A stretch of DNA of 32,000 nucleotides from Candidatus Saccharimonadota bacterium (lineage in GTDB: Bacteria; Patescibacteriota; Gracilibacteria; UBA1369; 2-02-FULL-48-14), in NCBI GenBank assembly GCA_016699145.1, contig CP064962.1, forward strand, positions 1,230,001 through 1,262,000, read 5' to 3'. The translations under genes were made by a program, and so were the position numbers. A model generated the notes under the pieces. That model did not search any database and was not told where the DNA came from. It was given only the letters and a program-made list of their open reading frames with translations. Positions 189 to 31,923 of this stretch are shown here, one piece after another (the stretch's first letter is position 1; every line of letters starts with the position of its first letter).

Positions 189-1352
189 ATGTCCACACGC
201 CTTAAAACGATGGCAAGCTTGCTTGTCCTCTCTATCTTTCTTCAGTTTTTTTCCATGCCTTTGGCTTCTGCAGAAGGAAATCTCCTCACCAATCCCGGAG
301 CCGAAACAGGAGATTTTACAGGATGGACTCGCGTGAATGGAGGGGATGGCTGGGCTTTGACCTCTGCACCTTGGTACGTCCATGGGGGTACGTATGCCTT
401 CGTGGCCTCTTATGCCTTTGGGACACTGACTCAAGTGGTGGACTTAGTGGGCGAAGGCTACTCACGCTCTTTTTTAGACCGAGAGCCTCAAGTGGATTTC
501 AGCACTTTCATCATGGGTCTGGACAGTTTTTCGAGCCCAGAAGACCCTTATTCGGTGACCGTGCTTCTTTTGAATGAAGAAGAAGAGGAAATTGCCAGCT
601 TCGAAACAGGAGATCAAACGGCAACAGGGGAATGGCAAGAAATCAGCCACTCTTTCACGAATTATGGCAACGGATTGCGTTACGTTTCAGTGGAATTGCG
701 CGGCAGCGATCAAGAATTTTGGGCAGGAAACTATGGAGCTATTTTTGATGACACGTCACTCTCCATCGTAGGGAACCCCCATTCAGGCAGCATTCCCTTT
801 CCGGTAACGATTTTTGTACCCGAAGAATCCTCTGAAGAATCGCTCAAAGAGTCGCCTTTTGAAGATGTGACCGAAACAGATCACAAGACCGCGATTGAGT
901 ACCTCTACGAAGCAGACATCGTCAATGGTTATGAAAAAGAAAATGGAGGCAAAGAATTCAAACCAGATCAATCCATCAATCGTGCCGAATTCTTAAAGAT
1001 GGTCATGGCTCTGACCGAAGAAGAAACAGAAGAACAGCACAATTGTTTCACCGATGTTCAGGATCAATGGTTTGCGCCTTATGTCTGCACCGCCCACAAA
1101 AAGGGCATAATCACCGGCTATGGAGATGGAAGCTTTAAACCGGAGCAGCCCATCACTTTTGAGGAAATGTTCACCCTCGCTCTCAGAGCTTATGGCTACA
1201 CTCTCAAATCCGATGCCAATGAGGCATGGTACAAAGCTTATTGGGACAAAGTGGTCAGCCTCAATTTGCTCGAAGAACTCAAACCCATGCTTCATAAAGA
1301 GGCCAATCGAGGGGAAGCCGCTCAATTGCTCTACAACATGGAAGTCCCTTGA
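189..1352 (+). CDS. Secreted cell-wall-anchored lectin-like protein: signal peptide + FBA/Fbs1-type glycan-binding domain + SLH repeats
   Basis: 387-aa ORF. The N-terminal signal peptide has the hydrophobic core LLVLSIFLQFF and an ASA/EG cleavage-like site. Residues ~30-195 match the FBXO2 sugar-binding domain blocks: NLLTNPGAETGDFTGW..NGGDGW; FVASY..QVVDLVGEGYSRSFLD..P; YSVTVLLL..IASFETG; EWQEISHSFTNYGNGLRYVSVELRGSDQEFWAGNYGAIFDDTSLS. The C-terminus carries SLH-type repeats (FEDV..IVNGY..FKPDQSINRAEFLKM; FTDV..IITGYGDGSFKPEQPITFEEM; ..ANRGEAAQLLY). Confidence 0.8.
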   Translation: MSTRLKTMASLLVLSIFLQFFSMPLASAEGNLLTNPGAETGDFTGWTRVNGGDGWALTSAPWYVHGGTYAFVASYAFGTLTQVVDLVGEGYSRSFLDREPQVDFSTFIMGLDSFSSPEDPYSVTVLLLNEEEEEIASFETGDQTATGEWQEISHSFTNYGNGLRYVSVELRGSDQEFWAGNYGAIFDDTSLSIVGNPHSGSIPFPVTIFVPEESSEESLKESPFEDVTETDHKTAIEYLYEADIVNGYEKENGGKEFKPDQSINRAEFLKMVMALTEEETEEQHNCFTDVQDQWFAPYVCTAHKKGIITGYGDGSFKPEQPITFEEMFTLALRAYGYTLKSDANEAWYKAYWDKVVSLNLLEELKPMLHKEANRGEAAQLLYNMEVP

Positions 1353-3469: not shown

Positions 3470-4391
3470 ACTCTTCCTTGAAATGCCTCACAGTGGCCGC
3501 TTAGGAATTCAAGATAAGGAAGGCGTTCCAGACCTTCTGAAGACAAGGTTGAACGCAACAGAAGCCGTGAGAGCTTCCCTCGTCTTTGGCTGCGACATCG
3601 CCGTCCCCACAATGACACAATTCGATGCCAGACGCATAGAGGCCCACCATACCACTTTATCCAACGATCTTTCCAGAATTTACACCGATCCCAATCGGGA
3701 TAAGAACACCGATTGCTCGGGCCGGATTCGTGAAGGTTTCGACAGAGATGCCTTTCCAAATGGAGTGATCTGGACTCGTACGGTTCCTCGCGGACTGAAC
3801 TTTGAACTCAGCCCTGAAGAAGTTGCAGAGCAGGCCCGTGCTCAATTTGAAGACATTTTTAATGCTCCATTGAGTTCAGATGAATTCGACGCGCTGATGC
3901 GAGAAGTCTATGACCCATATCACGCTCACATTCGTGAAACTCATGAAGCCATTCGAGGTCAACATGGGGAAGTGATACATCTCTCCCTTCACACTTTCCC
4001 TCCGGTGCTCGGAACCGTCGTGGACGGAGGCTACTCTCTAGGTAAACCCGCTCGTCCCGGGCTCTACGACGTGCAGGCCGGCACCTTTCCAGACTTGCTC
4101 ATCATTCACAATGACTTTAAAGCAGCGAGTCGAGAAAAAGTGGAAGTGGTTCGCCGCCATTTTAAAAGGGCAGGACTGATCGTTCAGGACGGCTTCGGAC
4201 CTTTCTTAGGAAGCAACGGAGTGACAGGCCTCTATGGAAACCCCGAGCAAGGAGTGAATGTTATCGGAATCGAGCATATTCCTCACAGGATTGAAACCGG
4301 CCGTCATCTCGGCTCCATGTCTTTTGATGAAGACGAAGCCAAAAAACATCAAGCCATGTACAGCGCTTTATTTGAAGAATTATCTCTTTAG
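3432..4391 (+). CDS. N-formylglutamate amidohydrolase (FGase) family protein
   Basis: Motif series typical of the FGase family: EMPHSGR (HxG), LSRIYTDPNRD (SR..D.NR), YDPYHAHI (PYH), IHLSLHTFPP (H-S/T-F), GPFLGSNG..GNP, IGIEH. The start is placed at MEKTIHYN (ATG 3432), which puts the HSG motif ~20 aa from the N-terminus as in family members. The ORF is open from 3342. Confidence 0.7.
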   Translation: MEKTIHYNSGSSKLFLEMPHSGRLGIQDKEGVPDLLKTRLNATEAVRASLVFGCDIAVPTMTQFDARRIEAHHTTLSNDLSRIYTDPNRDKNTDCSGRIREGFDRDAFPNGVIWTRTVPRGLNFELSPEEVAEQARAQFEDIFNAPLSSDEFDALMREVYDPYHAHIRETHEAIRGQHGEVIHLSLHTFPPVLGTVVDGGYSLGKPARPGLYDVQAGTFPDLLIIHNDFKAASREKVEVVRRHFKRAGLIVQDGFGPFLGSNGVTGLYGNPEQGVNVIGIEHIPHRIETGRHLGSMSFDEDEAKKHQAMYSALFEELSL

Positions 4392-7745: not shown

Positions 7746-7820
7746 GCCGCGGTAGCTCAGTGGTAGAGCAGGGGATTGAAAATCCCCGTGTCGGTGGTTC
7801 AATTCCGCCTCGCGGCACCA
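7746..7820 (+). tRNA. tRNA-Phe (anticodon GAA), CCA encoded
   Basis: Hand-folded cloverleaf: acceptor GCCGCGG/TCGCGGC, D arm GCTC..GAGC, anticodon stem GGGGA/TCCCC with loop TTGAAAA (GAA), T arm GGTGG-TTCAATT-CCGCC, discriminator A, then CCA. Confidence 0.95.
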
Positions 7821-7841
7821 CTCGGTTTTTTACCGACTCCC

Positions 7842-8324
7842 ATGTCAAAACTCTACGCACTCCTAGACGAACTCCAAATATCTTACGAGAAGTTTGAACA
7901 CCCTCCGGTTTTCACCATTGAGGAGTGCGAGATTTTAAAAAGTCTGAAAATGCCAGGCATCGAAGCAAAAAGCCTCTTCTTAAGGAATGACAAAGGCAGT
8001 GAACACTATTTAGTGGTACTTGCCGGTCACAAGCGCCTCAACCTTAAAGAATTGGGTCTGAGCTTAGGCACAAAATTCTCTTTTGCTTCCCCCGATCGCC
8101 TGCTCAAATACTTGGGGGTGACGCCCGGTTCCGTCAGCCCTTTTGCCCTGATGAACGACATGGAAAAAACAGTCAAAGTCTGTCTAGACACAGAAGTTTT
8201 CGCTGAAGAAAAAGTGCAATTTCATCCTCTCGTCAACACGGCAACTCTCGTTTTAAATGCCAAAGACTTGCTCCGTTTCATTGAGGCGACGGGGCATTCT
8301 TACCAATTGATGGATCTAGCTTAA
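7842..8324 (+). CDS. YbaK/ProX-type aminoacyl-tRNA editing (deacylase) domain protein
   Basis: MSKLYALLDELQISYEKFEHPPVFTIEE, EAKSLFLRN (conserved Lys), GVTPGSVSPFAL and FHPLVNTAT. The start is taken as ATG 7842 because the longer ORF from 7776 overlaps the tRNA. Confidence 0.85.
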   Translation: MSKLYALLDELQISYEKFEHPPVFTIEECEILKSLKMPGIEAKSLFLRNDKGSEHYLVVLAGHKRLNLKELGLSLGTKFSFASPDRLLKYLGVTPGSVSPFALMNDMEKTVKVCLDTEVFAEEKVQFHPLVNTATLVLNAKDLLRFIEATGHSYQLMDLA

Positions 8325-9489: not shown

Positions 9490-9826
9490 GGCTTTTACTT
9501 TAGCATTGCACTCAGTGGATTCAAAGCGCGTTCTTAAACTTCAGCCCGAAACTTTTTTACTCCTGGTAAAGCAGCTTCGCCATTTTGAAAAAGACGCCGA
9601 AATTTTTGAAATCAATTTAGATAAAATGAAAGTAAAAGGCGATTTAAAAGTGATCAAAAACACCTTCAAAAACAAAGAATTCATCGGAGTCTCAAGCTCA
9701 CTCAATTTGCTTAAAGCCGCCACCATCGCAGGCTGGGATACGCTTAAAGTCCCTGAAGGAATGGAGGTGGATGCTGAATTCACCAGTTTGGTGAAAAATA
9801 GAGGGACAAAAATTCTTCCATCATAG
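9488..9826 (+). CDS. Hypothetical protein (opposite-strand ORF filling the gap between two minus-strand genes)
   Basis: A 113-codon ORF from ATG 9488 in a ~38% GC stretch, with a protein-like K/E/L-rich composition. It spans the inter-CDS gap exactly. I found no convincing promoter and no recognised family. Confidence 0.4.
   Translation: MAFTLALHSVDSKRVLKLQPETFLLLVKQLRHFEKDAEIFEINLDKMKVKGDLKVIKNTFKNKEFIGVSSSLNLLKAATIAGWDTLKVPEGMEVDAEFTSLVKNRGTKILPS
9497..9524 (-). promoter_or_regulatory. Putative promoter of the MscS-like gene (near-leaderless)
   Basis: Read on the minus strand: TTGAAT (9524-9519), a 16-nt spacer ending in TGc, then TAAAGT (9502-9497). Only 7 nt separate the -10 from the ATG at 9489. 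Confidence 0.45.
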
Positions 9827-11149
9827 GATTCTCTCTCCAAGAAAGTCCTGAGCCCAATCCACTGCTACGCCACGCCCATAAAAGTTCACATGTGCGTCAT
9901 TGCTGGGACCATTGCGAACAAAGCTTTGAAGCACGGGATCCAAGCCAGGCAAAGCTCGCAGAGAAGCATCCAAATGGACAAAGTCGTTTTGACGGGCCAA
10001 CTGACCCGTTCCTATGTGGCCACAGTTGCTGGGGCCATTGAAGCCAAAATTGAAATAACGGCGATTGGCGACAGACCCGTTCACATGCAAGTCTCCAACA
10101 AGAAGAGCTACCGTAGGCCGTTCAGCCAAGATTTGCAAAATCTCTGCTTTTGCAGTGGTGGGCAAGCGATGAAGGGCAAAGTTAGCAGTCACAACAAGAG
10201 GGCGATCTATGGGAGTATTACCAACGACACTTTGAACTCCATCCACCATATCAGCAAAAATGAAACTAGAGTTCCCATCCAGCTCAGCATGTCCCCCTGC
10301 AAGGCTAAAAAGCTCTTTTTGATCCCTTAAAAGTGCCCCATGAAACGCTTGAGTTCCTTCAATTCCAACCAATTGCATATTTGGACGGACTTCCAGGTCC
10401 TGAATGCCTTTGAGTCCAGCAGCAATCGTGGCACCCGTTCCACTCCCCAAATCGATCCAGGTAAAACCTTCATGGCCAAATTGTCCAGCAAAATCTTTCA
10501 CCCCAGATCCGAGCACAAAGTTGGAAGCCCTCAAGTGAGCCATACCCGTGCCTTCTTGTCGAATCATATCCTCTAAACTACGAGAATCCTCAAGCATTCC
10601 AGTTCCAGTGGTCATGGTCTCATGAGTCCATCCAGCATAATTGGCATTGGCCACGAAACGCTGACCTTGAGGATGCCTGCCACGCAAAGCATTAAACCCC
10701 TGATTGGCACGTAGAACTTGATCCAAAGCCACATCCTCACTCATCTCAAGAGATTTATCCACAAACTCAGAAGCACTGAATTGTTCAGCAAGAATCGCTC
10801 GGCGAGTCGAATTCAACTTTCCATCCTGAACTGCTCTTTTATAGGGATACTCTCTATCGGTCGCCACACAATTCCAAAGCATCACATCCATCGCTTCCGC
10901 AGCACCAGATACATCTAAGTTTAGAACATCAGGCAAACCATTTTGAATCGCCAAAGTGGCTCGTCTCATCATTTCGGCCGCAACCCCATTTGCCTGGCCT
11001 TTTCTATCAGCAAAAGGTCCATACAGAGTGCCCTCTGCTGAAGCAGCTCGAGCATTCGTTTCAATCTCTTTACGTACAACGGAATTGGGAATATGGGGCA
11101 GCACGGCGTCCAAGTAAGCTTGAACCTGATCAGGGGCACGATCTTCCAT
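9821..11149 (-). CDS. Class I SAM-dependent methyltransferase-like protein with an N-terminal region of unknown function
   Basis: SAM motif I FTWIDLGSGTGATIAAG, post-I LVGIEG, then IFADMVDG and VVTANFALHRLP. The first ~220 aa are unrecognised. The start is taken at MEDRAPDQ (ATG 11149) because the T-rich upstream extension to 11200 coincides with a good promoter. Confidence 0.7.
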   Translation of the reverse strand: MEDRAPDQVQAYLDAVLPHIPNSVVRKEIETNARAASAEGTLYGPFADRKGQANGVAAEMMRRATLAIQNGLPDVLNLDVSGAAEAMDVMLWNCVATDREYPYKRAVQDGKLNSTRRAILAEQFSASEFVDKSLEMSEDVALDQVLRANQGFNALRGRHPQGQRFVANANYAGWTHETMTTGTGMLEDSRSLEDMIRQEGTGMAHLRASNFVLGSGVKDFAGQFGHEGFTWIDLGSGTGATIAAGLKGIQDLEVRPNMQLVGIEGTQAFHGALLRDQKELFSLAGGHAELDGNSSFIFADMVDGVQSVVGNTPIDRPLVVTANFALHRLPTTAKAEILQILAERPTVALLVGDLHVNGSVANRRYFNFGFNGPSNCGHIGTGQLARQNDFVHLDASLRALPGLDPVLQSFVRNGPSNDAHVNFYGRGVAVDWAQDFLGERIL

Positions 11150-11172
11150 AAATCTAAAAAAGATAAGACAGA

Positions 11173-11200
11173 ACCATATCACAAAATAAAAAAACATCAA
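11173..11200 (-). promoter_or_regulatory. Putative promoter of the methyltransferase-like gene
   Basis: Read on the minus strand: TTGATG (11200-11195), a 16-nt spacer ending in TGa, then TATGGT (11178-11173). It sits back-to-back with the ychF promoter. Confidence 0.4.
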
Positions 11201-16095: not shown

Positions 16096-16656
16096 ATGGG
16101 AATTGAAAGGATCTTGTCCGGTGATGCCATAGCGGCCGCTTCTATTATGGCTCCCGCCATTATTCGCAAGAATCCAAAATACCGCAAAAAAATCAAGGAA
16201 CGACTCGCGACATTAAAACGTCCAAGTCCAAAATCGGTTGAGCTAGAAAAGCTGGGATGGGCTTACCATCTGTCGAATCTTTTTCTCATCAGTGGATTCG
16301 TTGCAGGTGGAATTCTAATGGCGCGAGCTTTGGGCGACGAACCTTCTGTAGTGAGCATCATCAATCTTTTTATTCGATTGTTCATGCTACCGTTTGCGAT
16401 TGAACTGCTTCTTTTGATGCTCTACGAGCTCGTGCCCACTTATAAAAACTATCATTGCGCACAAGAGTTGGAACGCCTGCTTTACATGGCTGGAGAAATA
16501 AATTTGGAGCCGAATTCAGAAAGATTTTTCACGCGCCTCAAAGAGATCTCCAGTAAATACGATCTAGATAAACAGGCCAGACGAGAAAAAAAGACCTACC
16601 TACTCTGTCTGCTATTTCTCGCTAGCCTTACAGTTATTGTGGGTTTATTCCGTTGA
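16096..16656 (+). CDS. Hypothetical integral membrane protein
   Basis: 186-aa ORF with 3-4 hydrophobic helices (LFLISGFVAGGILMA, LFIRLFMLPFAIELLLLML, LLCLLFLASLTVIVGLF). No recognised family. Confidence 0.6.
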   Translation: MGIERILSGDAIAAASIMAPAIIRKNPKYRKKIKERLATLKRPSPKSVELEKLGWAYHLSNLFLISGFVAGGILMARALGDEPSVVSIINLFIRLFMLPFAIELLLLMLYELVPTYKNYHCAQELERLLYMAGEINLEPNSERFFTRLKEISSKYDLDKQARREKKTYLLCLLFLASLTVIVGLFR

Positions 16657-16723: not shown

Positions 16724-17611
16724 ATGAATTCCCTTCAATCGAAAATACAACAGTGGGCCCACCAAGTGGACAGAAAAGGGCTTAAAGCCGAAGAAGCCGA
16801 TCATCTGCGTTTGGATCTTTTGGCTCACGAAAAAGTGCAGTGGAATGCACAGTTCCCCACTCACCGTTCTTCCTTTGAAAATTTAAGGCGCTTTGCCACA
16901 ACAGCACTGGCACTTTTTTTATTGTTCTTCACGCTGACCAACGCACCGGCCTACGGGAAAATGGCTCTGGCCAGCCTTCAAGAAAACTGGCAAAATCATC
17001 AAAATTCTCAGCCACTGACCCCGCTCACCGTTCTAGAAAACGACCCCTGGACAGGAGCAAAACACCAATCGGAAGCCTTACTCGCCACAGAGCCTCGGCT
17101 CCTAGCCCCTCAAGCGGACTACGAGCTCCCGCCCTTGGCTGCACCCGTTTCTTACGAAAACCGCATCCAAATCCCAACTTTGGACATCAATGCCCCCATT
17201 GTGGAACCGAGTCTGGGCCTTTCCGCCCTTCAAAATAAGGATTGGGCAGCACTTGAAGAGCAAATCCACAGCGCTTTGACTCAAGGCGTAGTACATTTTC
17301 CGGGCACCGCAGAGCCCGGCCAGCAAGGGAACGCTTTTTTGACCGGACACAGCTCCAACGTGCTCTGGGAACAAAGCGCTTATAACACGGTCTTTGCTCT
17401 TTTACCCAAAATAAAAATCGGCGATGAAATTTGGGTGACTTACAATCAAACCGAGTACCGTTACACCGTAACTGAACGCAAAGAAGTCAGCCCCAAAGAC
17501 GTCAGTGTATTGAAACAAGGGGAAGGGAAAACCCTCACTTTGGTCACCTGCACTCCGGTAGGAACCACCTTGCGTCGCCTCGTGGTGACGGCTGTTTTGA
17601 ATGAGAATTAA
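16724..17611 (+). CDS. Sortase-family transpeptidase (N-terminal cytoplasmic segment + TM anchor)
   Basis: Catalytic triad context: FLTGHSS (His), TLVTCTP (TLxTC Cys), LRRLVV (Arg). The TM anchor is ALALFLLFFTL. Confidence 0.88.
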   Translation: MNSLQSKIQQWAHQVDRKGLKAEEADHLRLDLLAHEKVQWNAQFPTHRSSFENLRRFATTALALFLLFFTLTNAPAYGKMALASLQENWQNHQNSQPLTPLTVLENDPWTGAKHQSEALLATEPRLLAPQADYELPPLAAPVSYENRIQIPTLDINAPIVEPSLGLSALQNKDWAALEEQIHSALTQGVVHFPGTAEPGQQGNAFLTGHSSNVLWEQSAYNTVFALLPKIKIGDEIWVTYNQTEYRYTVTERKEVSPKDVSVLKQGEGKTLTLVTCTPVGTTLRRLVVTAVLNEN

Positions 17612-29771: not shown

Positions 29772-30434
29772 CTAGATACAATCTGAAGTATAATCTCCCG
29801 GGTCTCCTTCACCGTTTTCACCGTAGCATAAGGGTCTTTCATCTGTAGCATTGGATTCTCCATCAGCATCGAAATCCAACTCTCCGTCGGTATAACACTC
29901 TCCACTATAGAAACTATATTTAGAGCAAGGATTGTAGCCCATAAGGAATTCGTTCCAGGTTGAAATTCCATCCCCATCAGAGTCAGACTCATTAACCTCA
30001 TAGCCATAATTTGGATCAGAGGTGCCCTCTCCAACAACATCAAAAACTGCCGCTCCACATACCCTTAAAGGAATTTTATTGACCTGCTTCATGTAAATAT
30101 ATTGGCATCTGGCCTCAGCTTCATCTTGTTGATCATTACACTCAGCACTCCCTCCTTCTTCTCGTTGACAGTCATTTGCATCTACTTCAGCTCCGAGAAA
30201 GCATGAATTGTAAAAGTTGTTTGCTTGACTCCAAGAATACTGCATTTCTCCTGTATGGGCATCTACAGGACAAACAGTCGCCACATCTTGAATGGCAGTG
30301 TCTTCTGAATTTGACCCCTTACATCCTGCTAAAGCAGCCAAAATTGCGCCTCCTTTAAAAAGGTGTGAGGCTAACTTTGCAGAAGCTGAGACCCCTGTAT
30401 TTAATGCATTCAAAGCGGATTTAGGAAATTCCAT
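29772..30434 (-). CDS. Cys-rich secreted lipoprotein with DxDxDG-type calcium-binding loops
   Basis: Lipobox AILAALAG|C after a long n-region, with 10 further Cys residues in the mature part. There are two acidic loops, SDSDGDGISTWNE and DFDADGESNATDE (thrombospondin-type-3/EF-like). The start is ATG 30434, since the 30464 start lies upstream of the predicted -10. Confidence 0.7.
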   Translation of the reverse strand: MEFPKSALNALNTGVSASAKLASHLFKGGAILAALAGCKGSNSEDTAIQDVATVCPVDAHTGEMQYSWSQANNFYNSCFLGAEVDANDCQREEGGSAECNDQQDEAEARCQYIYMKQVNKIPLRVCGAAVFDVVGEGTSDPNYGYEVNESDSDGDGISTWNEFLMGYNPCSKYSFYSGECYTDGELDFDADGESNATDERPLCYGENGEGDPGDYTSDCI

Positions 30435-30455
30435 ATTAGGATAGGTTAAAAGCCA

Positions 30456-30484
30456 TATATACAATACTTTATATATTTAGTCAA
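30456..30484 (-). promoter_or_regulatory. Putative promoter of the lipoprotein gene
   Basis: Read on the minus strand: TTGACT (30484-30479), a 17-nt spacer, then TATATA (30461-30456). Confidence 0.5.
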
Positions 30485-30723: not shown

Positions 30724-31923
30724 CTACTCAACAATCGAGATCCCGGCAAGTTCACCGGTTTTCACCTGTTCGGCGCTGGACGCTTCCAAGGCTTCTAAAA
30801 TCTCTGAAAAACTGAGCTCAGGATCTTGCATGAGCAAACGCGCCACCGCAGCAGTCACAAAGGCCGTTGCTTGAGAAGTGCCACTTTTATAACCGTATTC
30901 ATTGCCTGGCAAAGAAGATTTCACGCGATAGCCATAAGCCGCCACATCCACCCAATTGCCATAATTGGAACTGGGCATCTGATGTCCCCCCGCATCCACA
31001 CTGCCCACCGCCAAGCTTTGAGCATAACTGGCAGGGTAAAAGCCCACATCTTTCCCTGAATTGCCAGCAGCGGAAACCACAATGATTCCCTGGTCGTAAG
31101 CCTTAGCGATCAAATTTTCCAAGGCATAAGAAGACGTGCTCAGGCCAAAACTGGCATTCACCACTGTAACGCCGTCTTGCATGGCTTTTGAAAAAGCCTC
31201 CAAAACGTTCGAAAGTTTGCCTCCTTTGCTGTCCACTATCTTATAAGGAACCAGGCTCACCCCTGGCGCATGAGCGGCAATGATGCCCGCAATATGGGTG
31301 CCATGACCCACATCATCCACCATGGTTTCGTCGTCCTTCAAGGTGTTCCACCCTTTTTGTATGGAAACATCTGCAAAAATCTCATGCCCCTCATCCACTC
31401 CACTGTCAATCACCGCCACCACCACTTCATTCAAAGGCTCCGAACTCAAGGCCACTGGCTGCGAAGCCATTGGATTCAGTTCCCACTCATAAACGGGGCT
31501 TTCCAAGCTCACTTCCTGATCCAATTCCACATGAGCAAATTCGGGAATGCTGCGCGCATATTGATCTGCAATTTCAGCTAATTTTTCATCCGAAAGCGGG
31601 TCTTGAGGCTGTAAAAGCAGCAAATGCTCTTCTTCCTTTAAACTGACCACGAGCCCTTTATTGTCCTTTTTTTCTTGCACAGGGATCAAGGCATCCGCCT
31701 TATAAAGCTCTGCAATCAGAGCAGATTCACTTTCTTTATCGATGAGCAAATCCTCCACATTCATCTGATACTGGTAATTGAGCGTGCGCAAAGCTTTGAG
31801 TGAATTCAATTCGAAAAGCTCGCTGCGGGGATGAATTTGAGCATCCAAAAGGGTCAAACCCAGGGCGAGTCCAACGGCTAAAGTGACCGGGATATAAGAG
31901 AGAAGTTGAGAGCGTGAAAGCAT
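30724..31923 (-). CDS. S8-family (subtilisin-like) serine peptidase, secreted or membrane-anchored
   Basis: Catalytic triad contexts: VAVIDSGVD (Asp), HGTHIAGIIAA (His), GTSQATAFVTAAVA (Ser). The N-terminal hydrophobic signal/anchor is IPVTLAVGLALGLTLL, followed by a propeptide-like region. Confidence 0.93.
   Translation of the reverse strand: MLSRSQLLSYIPVTLAVGLALGLTLLDAQIHPRSELFELNSLKALRTLNYQYQMNVEDLLIDKESESALIAELYKADALIPVQEKKDNKGLVVSLKEEEHLLLLQPQDPLSDEKLAEIADQYARSIPEFAHVELDQEVSLESPVYEWELNPMASQPVALSSEPLNEVVVAVIDSGVDEGHEIFADVSIQKGWNTLKDDETMVDDVGHGTHIAGIIAAHAPGVSLVPYKIVDSKGGKLSNVLEAFSKAMQDGVTVVNASFGLSTSSYALENLIAKAYDQGIIVVSAAGNSGKDVGFYPASYAQSLAVGSVDAGGHQMPSSNYGNWVDVAAYGYRVKSSLPGNEYGYKSGTSQATAFVTAAVARLLMQDPELSFSEILEALEASSAEQVKTGELAGISIVE

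Follow-up and report, generated by a model that had tools for sequence, protein, structure and literature searches.

We identified a gene (positions 189..1352, + strand) whose product joins an FBA (F-box-associated) domain to an SLH module, and we propose that this FBA-SLH protein is probably a wall-displayed lectin or adhesin of Candidatus Peregrinibacteria (CPR/Patescibacteria). The gene is a complete ATG-to-TGA open reading frame of 387 aa and the only FBA or SLH gene in the window, by which we mean the whole 32-kb stretch of DNA that was analyzed. Sequence analysis confirmed the order of the modules: a predicted Sec-type signal peptide comes first, then the FBA domain and an acidic linker, and finally the SLH repeats, two of them canonical and the third degenerate.

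The protein matches exactly QQR54837.1 of Candidatus Peregrinibacteria bacterium. The LigA encoded in the window is identical to QQR54859.1, from the same 1,338,973-bp Candidatus Peregrinibacteria contig. The NCBI name for QQR54837.1 is "S-layer homology domain-containing protein", with the FBA part unnamed. Since public annotation names the SLH part only, the FBA content is invisible to searches by name. Inspection of the region 5' of the gene revealed no Shine-Dalgarno-like sequence or consensus promoter, and a promoter/terminator scan around the gene gave nothing exceeding shuffled expectation.

An FBA domain of Fbs1 type behind a predicted signal peptide

The N terminus (residues 1-28, 189..272, +) reads as a Sec-type signal peptide, with R4 and K6 in the n-region, a hydrophobic core (ASLLVLSIFLQFF) and A26-S27-A28 directly before E29. 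Cleavage is predicted after A26-S27-A28, and this n/h/c layout with its AxA site agrees with the N-terminal export signal proposed in the initial annotation. The peptide contains no Cys and is therefore not a lipoprotein signal. Residues 3-21 are helical in the single-sequence AF2 model, and in homologues the FBA domain likewise begins directly after an AxA-type site.

Residues 29-195 (273..773, +) were assigned to the FBA (Fbs1-type) beta-sandwich by Pfam, PDB sequence searches, AF2 and Foldseek, and both sequence and predicted fold confirmed this membership. The presence of the domain, claimed from the sequence by the initial annotation, was substantiated by a Pfam PF04300 match that covers residues 29-192 and profile positions 7-174 of 175 (E=5.3e-26, 91.9 bits; gathering cut-off 32.4 bits). 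Phmmer against PDB sequences retrieved the sugar-binding domains of FBXO2/Fbs1 (1umi, 1umh, 2rj2 and 2e33; E ~3e-21, residues 25-190), followed by FBXO44 and FBXO6 (E ~1e-16). Four motif blocks had originally been compared with FBXO2 strings. All four co-align in one HMMER alignment with FBXO2, and the quoted strings are nearly exact.

The AF2 model of the FBA domain, built with an MSA, reached a pLDDT of 95.8. Its top Foldseek matches were 2rj2, 1umi and 2e33 (TM 0.86-0.87, rmsd 1.7 Å, 34% identity to Fbs1), and the ten best PDB matches were all Fbs1, Fbs2 or FBG3 (TM 0.77-0.87, 31-34% identity). After a marked drop, the second tier consisted of CBM61/16/22/4 domains and those of phage tailspikes (TM 0.49-0.67, 10-19% identity), with 0.67 as the best TM of any non-FBA match. 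The superposition on Fbs1 structures that had been suggested as a check was thus obtained (TM 0.86, 1.7 Å), with generic CBM folds scoring far lower. Galactose-binding-like CBMs (CBM4/9/16/22/61) and phage tail-fibre or tailspike domains share the beta-sandwich superfold and the extracellular glycan-recognition context. They differ in their low identity and TM, and a Pfam scan of the FBA-SLH protein gave no CBM family at E up to 10; the protein belongs to FBA and to no described CBM family.

The likeness to Fbs1/FBXO2 (and to Fbs2/FBXO6 and FBG3/FBXO44) thus comprises homologous sequence (E ~1e-21 to 1e-26) and, in the predicted model, the ten-stranded antiparallel beta-sandwich. Unlike Fbs1, the FBA-SLH protein has neither an F-box nor the linker helix and therefore cannot join an SCF ubiquitin ligase. 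The lack of an F-box, as originally described, was corroborated by the Pfam scan, in which no F-box or F-box-like match appeared even at E up to 10; the N terminus is occupied by the predicted signal peptide instead. Because it has no N-terminal F-box, the protein is by its sequence an FBA-domain protein and not an Fbs-type F-box protein (SCF substrate receptor). Moreover, Fbs1 is cytosolic, whereas the FBA-SLH protein would be extracytoplasmic according to its predicted signal peptide. To our knowledge, ERAD substrates do not exist in such bacteria.

The domain is followed by a linker (residues 196-222, 774..854, +) with an acidic Ser/Glu-rich stretch (…PEESSEESLKES), assigned by composition. 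Seven acidic residues and one basic residue between positions 196 and 226 of the protein bear out the acidic linker of the initial annotation, and pLDDT is low here in the single-sequence model. After cleavage, the mature protein would comprise 359 residues (~39 kDa) with a single 167-residue globular domain, and it is strongly acidic by composition count (D+E 62 vs. K+R 22).

The candidate glycan pocket and the SLH module

The hydrophobic chitobiose pocket of Fbs1 is formed by Phe177, Tyr279 and Trp280 (PMC4603797). We read the corresponding columns from a MAFFT alignment of 217 family domains and mouse Fbs1. Tyr75 (411..413, +) is the equivalent of Fbs1 Phe177 in the beta3-beta4 loop, and Phe177-Trp178-Ala179 (717..725, +) are the equivalents of Fbs1 Tyr279-Trp280-Lys281 in the beta9-beta10 loop. 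The pocket aromatics of Fbs1 are hence kept as Y75/F177/W178, and they are also preserved in the collinear homologue P0014. Across the family, the Phe177 column holds Tyr or Phe in 180/217 domains (Y 149, F 31), the Trp280 column holds Trp in 183/217, and the Tyr279 column reads Y51/F50/W20 in the 217 domains. The Lys281 column is mostly Ala (99 of 217 domains), as in the FBA-SLH protein. The protein also differs from Fbs1 by a shorter loop where Fbs1 residues 157-161 align. Conservation at the glycan-contacting loops, which the initial annotation had suggested checking, therefore applies to the three aromatics but not to Lys281 or to this loop. FBXO44/FBG3 has the same three aromatics as Fbs1 and yet binds no sugar, owing to differing neighboring loops (PMC4603797). 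As FBG3 keeps the aromatics without binding sugar, residue conservation alone is insufficient for sugar binding, and we regard the FBA domain as a putative glycan-binding domain.

Pfam SLH (PF00395) matched the C-terminal part in two stretches (E=2.5e-23, 82.2 bits in total; cut-off 20.8 bits). Scanned alone, repeat 1 (residues 223-276, 855..1016, +) scored 39.4 bits and repeat 2 (residues 286-336, 1044..1196, +) 52.5 bits. A degenerate third SLH-like segment (residues 342-387, 1212..1349, +) was assigned by motif reading and gave no Pfam match when scanned separately. The original count of two to three SLH repeats is therefore accurate. The full-length single-sequence AlphaFold model had a pLDDT of 41.6 (<60 in the region of the third segment) and yielded no reliable model of the SLH module.

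We used published SLH motif definitions, in which SLH-Arg43, SLH-Gly29 and SLH-Trp13 are the ligand-contact residues (PMC6081394). Repeat 1, whose alignment to Sap SLH1 takes in the TRAE motif with its arginine, carries NRAE (SLH-Arg43 = R265) and IVNG (SLH-Gly29 = G247), while SLH-Trp13 is missing. Repeat 2 aligns to Sap SLH2 and contains Trp294 and GIITG (G310), with TFEE in place of TRAE and hence no Arg, comparable to TVEE in SpaA. The third segment contains Trp347 and NRGE (R374) and lacks the GIIxG glycine. It resembles 'TKAEAAQFI' of Sap SLH3, and its W and xRxE motif are conserved in P0014 (TRSE), which suggests that it corresponds to SLH3. From the sequence and the Sap alignment, with segment 3 taken as a repeat, two predicted grooves are complete (R265+G310+W347 and R374+G247+W294). 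SpaA of Paenibacillus alvei has two active grooves and one dead groove (PMC6081394), and the distribution of Arg43, Gly29 and Trp13 in the FBA-SLH protein appears to reproduce this pattern.

The module thereby shares TRAE-type arginines, the GIIxG glycine and the Trp with SLH proteins of Gram-positive bacteria (Bacillus anthracis Sap/EA1, P. alvei SpaA/SlhA and SLH exoenzymes). In contrast to these, the FBA-SLH protein has its module at the C terminus, with a degenerate third repeat, carries one FBA domain as passenger in place of a lattice-forming or catalytic region, and belongs to a CPR bacterium. No match to PS_pyruv_trans (CsaB, pyruvyl-transferase) was obtained among the ORFs of the 32-kb window.

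FBA domains of bacteria and archaea

What is known of FBA concerns almost solely the SCF ubiquitin ligases of eukaryotes, in which it reads glycans, and our literature searches on prokaryotic FBA domains returned eukaryotic F-box work only. A search by word index, with nothing but the FBA domain as query, gave no homologue at E<=1e-5. This was a limit of sensitivity, as an exhaustive search gave 817 cluster representatives (50% clustering). The best 150 of these 817 are nearly all prokaryotic; CPR bacteria, Bacteroidota, Myxococcota and Planctomycetota are represented, as are several archaea. FBA domains were located at 68 loci, whose hosts belong to numerous bacterial phyla and to several lineages of archaea. 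The vertebrate FBXO proteins group together in a single clade of an NJ tree (50/50 bootstrap), amid far more divergent prokaryotic sequences. The term eukaryote-type used in the initial annotation is thus misleading. Its description of the domain as uncommon in bacteria is right in that the occurrence is sparse, but it misses a broad and deep prokaryotic radiation.

In a Pfam scan of 99 close family representatives, FBA was found in 99/99 and an F-box in 3/99. The T9SS C-terminal sorting domain was present in 22/99 and PG_binding_1 in 9/99, and further partners were Ig-like, cadherin or SprB repeats. Bacteroidota relatives carry the C-terminal type IX secretion (T9SS) sorting domain. In CPR relatives, FBA is N-terminal and the layout is SP-FBA-(Ig)-PG_binding_1 or SP-FBA-...-TM. 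Some relatives are giant multi-domain adhesin-like proteins. By a crude ad hoc hydrophobic-segment rule, N termini resembling signal peptides were counted in 98/142 Met-initiated proteins among the 150 representatives, and the first FBA domain begins within 60 residues of the N terminus in 97/150. Family-wide sequence comparison thus links the FBA domains of prokaryotes to export signals as well as envelope anchors. We conclude that, as far as domain searches tell, FBA is a surface module in bacteria and archaea, sparse in occurrence yet widely distributed, for which we found no study in the literature.

The FBA-SLH protein has the domain in common with prokaryotic FBA surface proteins such as those of Pyxidicoccus (WP_267862192.1), Methylococcaceae (MFZ2724938.1), Chloroflexota (MFZ5880906.1) and CPR/ANME-1 MAGs (40-56% identity), which are likewise envelope-associated and usually carry FBA straight after the signal peptide. 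It differs in its anchor, most of the others having a T9SS C-terminal domain, PG_binding_1, a TM helix or a giant repeat protein in place of SLH. The combination of FBA and SLH was found in four proteins only, namely the FBA-SLH protein itself, P0014, P0032 and P0127. P0014 is 51% identical over 387 aa, and its gene adjoins other genes than the FBA-SLH gene does. This is the closest relative found anywhere; the FBA-SLH protein is alone in its 90% cluster, and no close relative of the full protein turned up in a scan of genome contigs. Conserved patterns were taken from a 12-sequence alignment, a 50-sequence alignment being too diverse. Clustering of the ORFs flanking the 68 FBA loci gave no recurrent neighbor, and the genomic context therefore holds no clue to the FBA ligand.

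Proposed role and alternative explanations

The initial annotation suggested a surface lectin or adhesin. This reading gains support because the pocket aromatics are conserved and because CPR and Bacteroidota relatives carry FBA on other envelope anchors; it is weakened by the Ala in place of Lys281, the shorter loop and the FBG3 precedent. Further points against the proposal are that Pfam misses the third SLH segment, that the window contains no match to CsaB, that the region 5' of the gene shows no Shine-Dalgarno-like sequence or consensus promoter, and that no neighbor recurs at the 68 loci. We propose that the protein would be exported by Sec, with removal of the signal peptide after Ala28. 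Its C-terminal SLH module would fold as the usual three-pronged spindle and bind an anionic, probably pyruvylated secondary cell-wall polymer non-covalently via two grooves, one composed of R265 (repeat 1), G310 (repeat 2) and W347 (segment 3), the other of R374 (segment 3), G247 (repeat 1) and W294 (repeat 2). The acidic linker would keep the N-terminal FBA beta-sandwich clear of the wall. As a lectin, the FBA domain may hold a glycan in the aromatic pocket Y75/F177/W178 at the top of the sandwich, which corresponds to the binding site of Fbs1 for the GlcNAc-GlcNAc core of N-glycans. The protein would likely serve to attach the cell to a glycan, be it of a host or partner cell or of some polymeric substrate. 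Attachment fits the symbiotic lifestyle inferred for the phylum. Genes for peptidoglycan synthesis, sortase, S-layer proteins and large proteins for extracellular attachment are present in Peribacteria genomes, for which symbiosis has been inferred (PMC4736985).

The protein might instead be anchored to the wall while its FBA domain has a ligand other than a carbohydrate, such as a protein, or is a mere structural spacer, comparable to FBXO44/FBG3. That an FBA domain with three pocket aromatics can be without a sugar pocket (PMC4603797) speaks for this, as do the missing conservation of Lys281, the divergent loop and the fact that no glycan-metabolism gene is a conserved neighbor at the 68 loci. 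We nevertheless think it unlikely, given the strong conservation of the aromatics in very divergent prokaryotic members and next-best structural neighbors that are all carbohydrate-binding modules and phage glycan-recognizing tail proteins. Still less probable, in our view, is an S-layer protein or lattice component with a self-assembling FBA domain and an SLH anchor. The small size of the mature protein with its one globular domain does not suit an S-layer protein, and the occurrence of FBA on many unrelated anchors and in giant adhesin-like relatives speaks for ligand binding and not for lattice formation. A protein that is lone in its 90% cluster and 51% identical to its closest relative also fits poorly with a core envelope component of the lineage, even though the SLH-anchored architecture, the strongly acidic mature protein, the NCBI name and S-layer genes reported from Peribacteria (PMC4736985) are all compatible with an S-layer function.

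If the gene had recently been acquired from a eukaryote by horizontal transfer, or were a contaminant of the assembly, FBA would be an ERAD domain without adapted function. The Pfam family was named for and characterized in eukaryotic F-box proteins, and the identity to vertebrate FBXO2/6/44 is 31-34%. Against this, bases 1-2000, which hold the gene, have a G+C of 0.47 that agrees with the window (0.44-0.51), the neighboring genes in the window are bacterial housekeeping genes on a 1.34-Mb contig, and FBA shares one reading frame with export and anchor modules of bacterial type. The nearest FBA relatives are prokaryotic (44-56% identity; CPR bacteria and an archaeon), with the vertebrate sequences in their separate clade. 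Contamination or recent eukaryote-to-bacterium transfer is hardly credible to us and was rejected on composition, context and phylogeny.

Returning to the lectin or adhesin reading, the broad extracellular radiation of FBA in bacteria and archaea recasts the origin of the module. We tentatively raise the possibility, doubtful as it is, that prokaryotic FBA domains are ancient extracellular GlcNAc-beta1,4-GlcNAc lectins that serve as wall adhesins in CPR bacteria, and that Fbs1/2/3 descended from them by capture and F-box fusion. If so, they would recognize chitobiose cores, chitin, glycan strands of peptidoglycan or similar motifs, and prokaryotic FBA would in effect be a new, so far unrecognized CBM family. 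The Peregrinibacterium adhesin would then grip glycans of the host-cell surface, and the cytosolic N-glycan sensors of eukaryotic ERAD would come from a prokaryotic surface lectin.

The Fbs1-type scaffold has already been engineered into an N-glycan capture reagent (PMC5457524). The prokaryotic FBA domains represent many natural variants of this scaffold. A life attached to other cells is assumed for CPR/Patescibacteria, yet only a small number of adhesin candidates whose class of ligand can be predicted are known. A small two-module protein, composed of a putative lectin and a wall anchor, is an experimentally tractable adhesin candidate.

Identity and predicted fold of the FBA domain

The FBA-SLH protein (387 amino acids) is encoded by a single ORF of 387 codons at 189..1352 (+), with an ATG start and a TGA stop. 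A Pfam scan of the protein returned two significant families, as the initial annotation had anticipated: FBA (PF04300), with profile positions 7-174 of 175 aligned to residues 29-192 (E=5.3e-26, 91.9 bits; cut-off 32.4 bits), and SLH (PF00395) in two stretches (E=2.5e-23). The FBA match is reachable by routine annotation. The same scan found no F-box at E up to 10, also as first claimed, so that the protein lacks the defining domain of Fbs-type F-box proteins.

When all PDB chains were searched by sequence, residues 25-190 matched mouse Fbs1/FBXO2 sugar-binding domains (1umi, 1umh, 2rj2, 2e33, 2e31; E about 3e-21), followed by FBXO44 and FBXO6 (E about 1e-16), and residues 234-344 matched the B. 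anthracis Sap SLH module (E = 6e-9). The four motif blocks originally lined up with FBXO2 all fell in register within one HMMER alignment. Together with the Fbs1 matches, this makes the FBA observation real and far beyond chance.

AlphaFold was uninformative on the single sequence (pLDDT 41.6). Given an alignment of 50 family-domain sequences, it modelled residues 25-200 at pLDDT 95.8 and pTM 0.91. The ten top Foldseek PDB matches of this model were Fbs1/Fbs2/FBG3 chains (E down to 6e-19, TM 0.77-0.87, rmsd 1.6-3.8 Å, 31-34% identity). Only after a clear gap came CBM61, CBM16, CBM22, CBM4 and phage tailspike domains (TM 0.49-0.67, 10-19% identity), so the model superposes on Fbs1 and its best hits are not just generic galactose-binding-like or CBM folds, the outcome that would have refuted the initial annotation. 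By all sequence and fold criteria the protein belongs to the FBA domain family, and we regard the homology as solid. Five unnamed viral proteins in BFVD (A0A346G414, A0A346G412, A0A346G4A3, A0A346G422, A0A346G3Y3) also matched the model (TM 0.75-0.79, 20-26% identity), more closely than ordinary phage CBM-like tail domains; their adjacent accession numbers suggest one common submission.

Predicted export signal, wall anchor and sugar pocket

Residues 1-28 (MSTRLKTMASLLVLSIFLQFFSMPLASA) read as a putative Sec signal peptide, with an n/h/c layout and A-S-A as the cleavage site, and without a lipobox cysteine. The linker at residues 196-226 is acidic, as initially described (7 D/E versus 1 K/R), and the mature protein is acidic overall (62 D+E versus 22 K+R). 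Two or three SLH repeats had been proposed. Pfam recognised two when each was scanned alone (residues 223-276, 39.4 bits; residues 286-336, 52.5 bits), and the final 46 residues, scanned separately, gave no Pfam match; this third segment is a putative degenerate SLH, a reading backed by the homologue P0014, in which its W and xRxE motif are kept.

SLH contact residues were assigned by alignment to Sap and from published definitions (SLH-Trp13, SLH-Gly29 in GIIxG, SLH-Arg43 in TRAE; PMC6081394). Repeat 1 lacks Trp13 and has Gly29 (G247, IVNG) and Arg43 (R265, NRAE); repeat 2 has Trp13 (W294) and Gly29 (G310, GIITG) and lacks Arg43 (TFEE); segment 3 has Trp13 (W347) and Arg43 (R374, NRGE) and lacks Gly29. 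Since each groove of the SLH spindle takes its Arg43, Gly29 and Trp13, in that order, from three successive repeats, two grooves would be complete and the third dead, as in P. alvei SpaA (TRAE/TVEE/TRAQ) (PMC6081394).

In Fbs1, Phe177, Tyr279 and Trp280 bind the GlcNAc-GlcNAc core (PMC4603797). In an alignment of 217 family domains with mouse Fbs1, these correspond to Tyr75 (family column Y 149, F 31), Phe177 (Y 51, F 50, W 20) and Trp178 (W 183) of the FBA-SLH protein, and Fbs1 Lys281 corresponds to Ala179 (A 99). Opposite Fbs1 residues 157-161 in the alignment, the FBA-SLH protein has a shorter loop. FBG3/FBXO44 has Tyr/Tyr/Trp at the pocket positions, yet binds no sugar because its surrounding loops differ (PMC4603797); conservation of pocket residues is therefore no proof. 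The kept residues would thus favour, without proving, sugar binding.

Relatives in bacteria and archaea

An exhaustive phmmer search of 1.84 billion cluster representatives, with residues 25-200 as query, yielded 817 FBA relatives at E<=1e-3 (420 at <=1e-10, 56 at <=1e-30). Among the best 150 of the 817 are proteins carrying 2-8 FBA domains in tandem, very large proteins of 2,000-3,700 aa and, of those with names, Methylococcaceae "DUF4347", a Pyxidicoccus hypothetical and Chloroflexota "choice-of-anchor Q". FBA domains stand in tandem in the very large proteins P0002 (locus L015) and P0001 and P0003 (L009, L010); there are 8 within 1,506 aa in one uncultured bacterium, and 4-5 in the Methylococcaceae 'DUF4347' proteins of 2,774-3,757 aa.

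Scanning species-representative genomes with two conserved peptide patterns gave 68 FBA loci, a lower bound. They occur in CPR bacteria (Uhrbacteria, 53% identity; Saccharibacteria, 49%; Moraniibacteriota, 47%), in Planctomycetota, Methylococcaceae, one cyanobacterium, Myxococcota (Pyxidicoccus, Minicystis rosea), Bacteroidota, Acidobacteriota, Verrucomicrobiota and Chloroflexota, and in archaea (Methanoperedens, 47%; Methanophagales/ANME-1, Altiarchaeota, Methanobacteriota). At L004 (6845-8878, Candidatus Moraniibacteriota), another ORF that clusters with FBA proteins follows the first FBA-PG_binding_1 gene after ~700 bp, which suggests local duplication.

A Pfam census of the 99 of the best 150 representatives that are <=720 aa found FBA in all 99, Por_Secre_tail (T9SS sorting domain) in 22, PG_binding_1 in 9, Big_5 in 6, Flg_new and HYR in 5 each, and SprB and F-box in 3 each. 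Among the 150, a crude hydrophobic-segment rule detected a signal-peptide-like N-terminus in 98 of 142 Met-initiated proteins, and the first FBA domain starts <=60 residues from the N-terminus in 97. The closest relatives show the architectures SP-FBA-Big_5 (Uhrbacteria), SP-FBA-Ig-PG_binding_1 (Saccharibacteria, Moraniibacteriota), SP-FBA-Laminin_G_3-Ig-PG_binding_1 and SP-FBA-Ig...-C-terminal TM helix; beyond the query, only P0014, P0032 and P0127 among them combine FBA with SLH. P0014 is a collinear 388-aa homologue, 51% identical over its full length, that shares both cysteines and the pocket aromatics; its gene neighbourhood shows no synteny with the window. The recurring pattern is an exported protein with FBA at its distal N-terminal end and with an envelope-associated module, be it SLH, PG_binding_1, a TM helix or a T9SS sorting domain. 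The FBA protein of L025 (Candidatus Methanophagaceae archaeon) ends in a C-terminal TM helix and so would be a membrane-anchored archaeal version; an in-frame TAA (3508-3510), Gln in the sister locus L021, lies exactly between signal peptide and FBA domain and marks either a pseudogene or a sequencing error.

Genomic setting, origin and putative role

The window encodes bacterial housekeeping functions (RarA/MgsA, a TrpR-like regulator, ThyA, DHFR, exonuclease III family, RelA/SpoT, MnmA, LigA, DnaX, a UvrD/PcrA-like helicase), a sortase, two GT4 glycosyltransferases, one subtilase and two tRNAs, at an even G+C of 0.44-0.51. Its LigA is 100% identical to QQR54859.1, and the FBA-SLH protein exactly matches QQR54837.1 on the same Candidatus Peregrinibacteria contig (1,338,973 bp); the gene is therefore already deposited, as "S-layer homology domain-containing protein", a name that omits the FBA domain. 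No neighbour is conserved across the 68 FBA loci, and the 32-kb window holds no second FBA or SLH gene and no CsaB gene, so genomic context does not help interpretation.

Several other window features were noted. The upstream gene's 3' end (1-168, +; …RFARVGRDKYALLGEAQAL*) extends past the left edge and encodes a C-terminus that we take to resemble a HARE-HTH-type DNA-binding tail. The YbaK-like (tRNA_edit) ORF (7776-8324, +) has a mechanical TTG start within tRNA-Phe (7746-7820) and probably begins further downstream. ORF 9821-11200 (-; 459 aa) has no Pfam family at E<=1e-3. The sortase gene (16724-17611, +) is preceded by a membrane-protein-like ORF of 186 aa without a family (16096-16656, +), and no LPXTG-type substrate was found among the inspected unannotated window ORFs. 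The subtilase (Peptidase_S8; 30724-31923, -) has a hydrophobic N-terminal segment and is probably another exported protein. ORF 29772-30464 (-; 230 aa) has no Pfam family; its product is very acidic and rich in cysteine, its hydrophobic N-terminus is followed by a lipobox-like LAGC, and it is reminiscent of Peribacteria cysteine-rich extracellular proteins (PMC4736985). In published Peribacteria genomes there are genes for peptidoglycan synthesis, for S-layer proteins, for a sortase and for large extracellular proteins with a proposed role in attachment, and a symbiotic lifestyle has been inferred for these bacteria (PMC4736985).

A recent import from a eukaryote, or contamination, is contradicted by composition, context and phylogeny. 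In a neighbour-joining tree of 58 FBA domains, the query pairs with P0014 and adjoins CPR sequences and Methanoperedens, and twelve vertebrate FBXO2/6/44 sequences form one clade (50/50 bootstrap) among far more divergent prokaryotic branches. This tree, which has vertebrates as its only eukaryotes and a midpoint root and so sets no direction of transfer, gives no support to the notion that the bacterial protein recently arrived as a eukaryotic domain. As to function, we weighed a non-carbohydrate ligand, for which FBG3 is a precedent, and a role as a true S-layer subunit. A putative wall-displayed lectin or adhesin is the best-supported reading, and by analogy with Fbs1 a GlcNAc-containing motif may serve, speculatively, as first-guess ligand.

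Neither FBA nor SLH is new as a family, and the anchoring of sugar-binding passengers by SLH is a well-known arrangement. The papers found in our literature search describe neither an extracellular, F-box-less prokaryotic FBA branch across many phyla nor its coupling to wall anchors in CPR bacteria. The attraction of the FBA-SLH protein lies in this evolutionary angle and in its putative function as a CPR adhesin.
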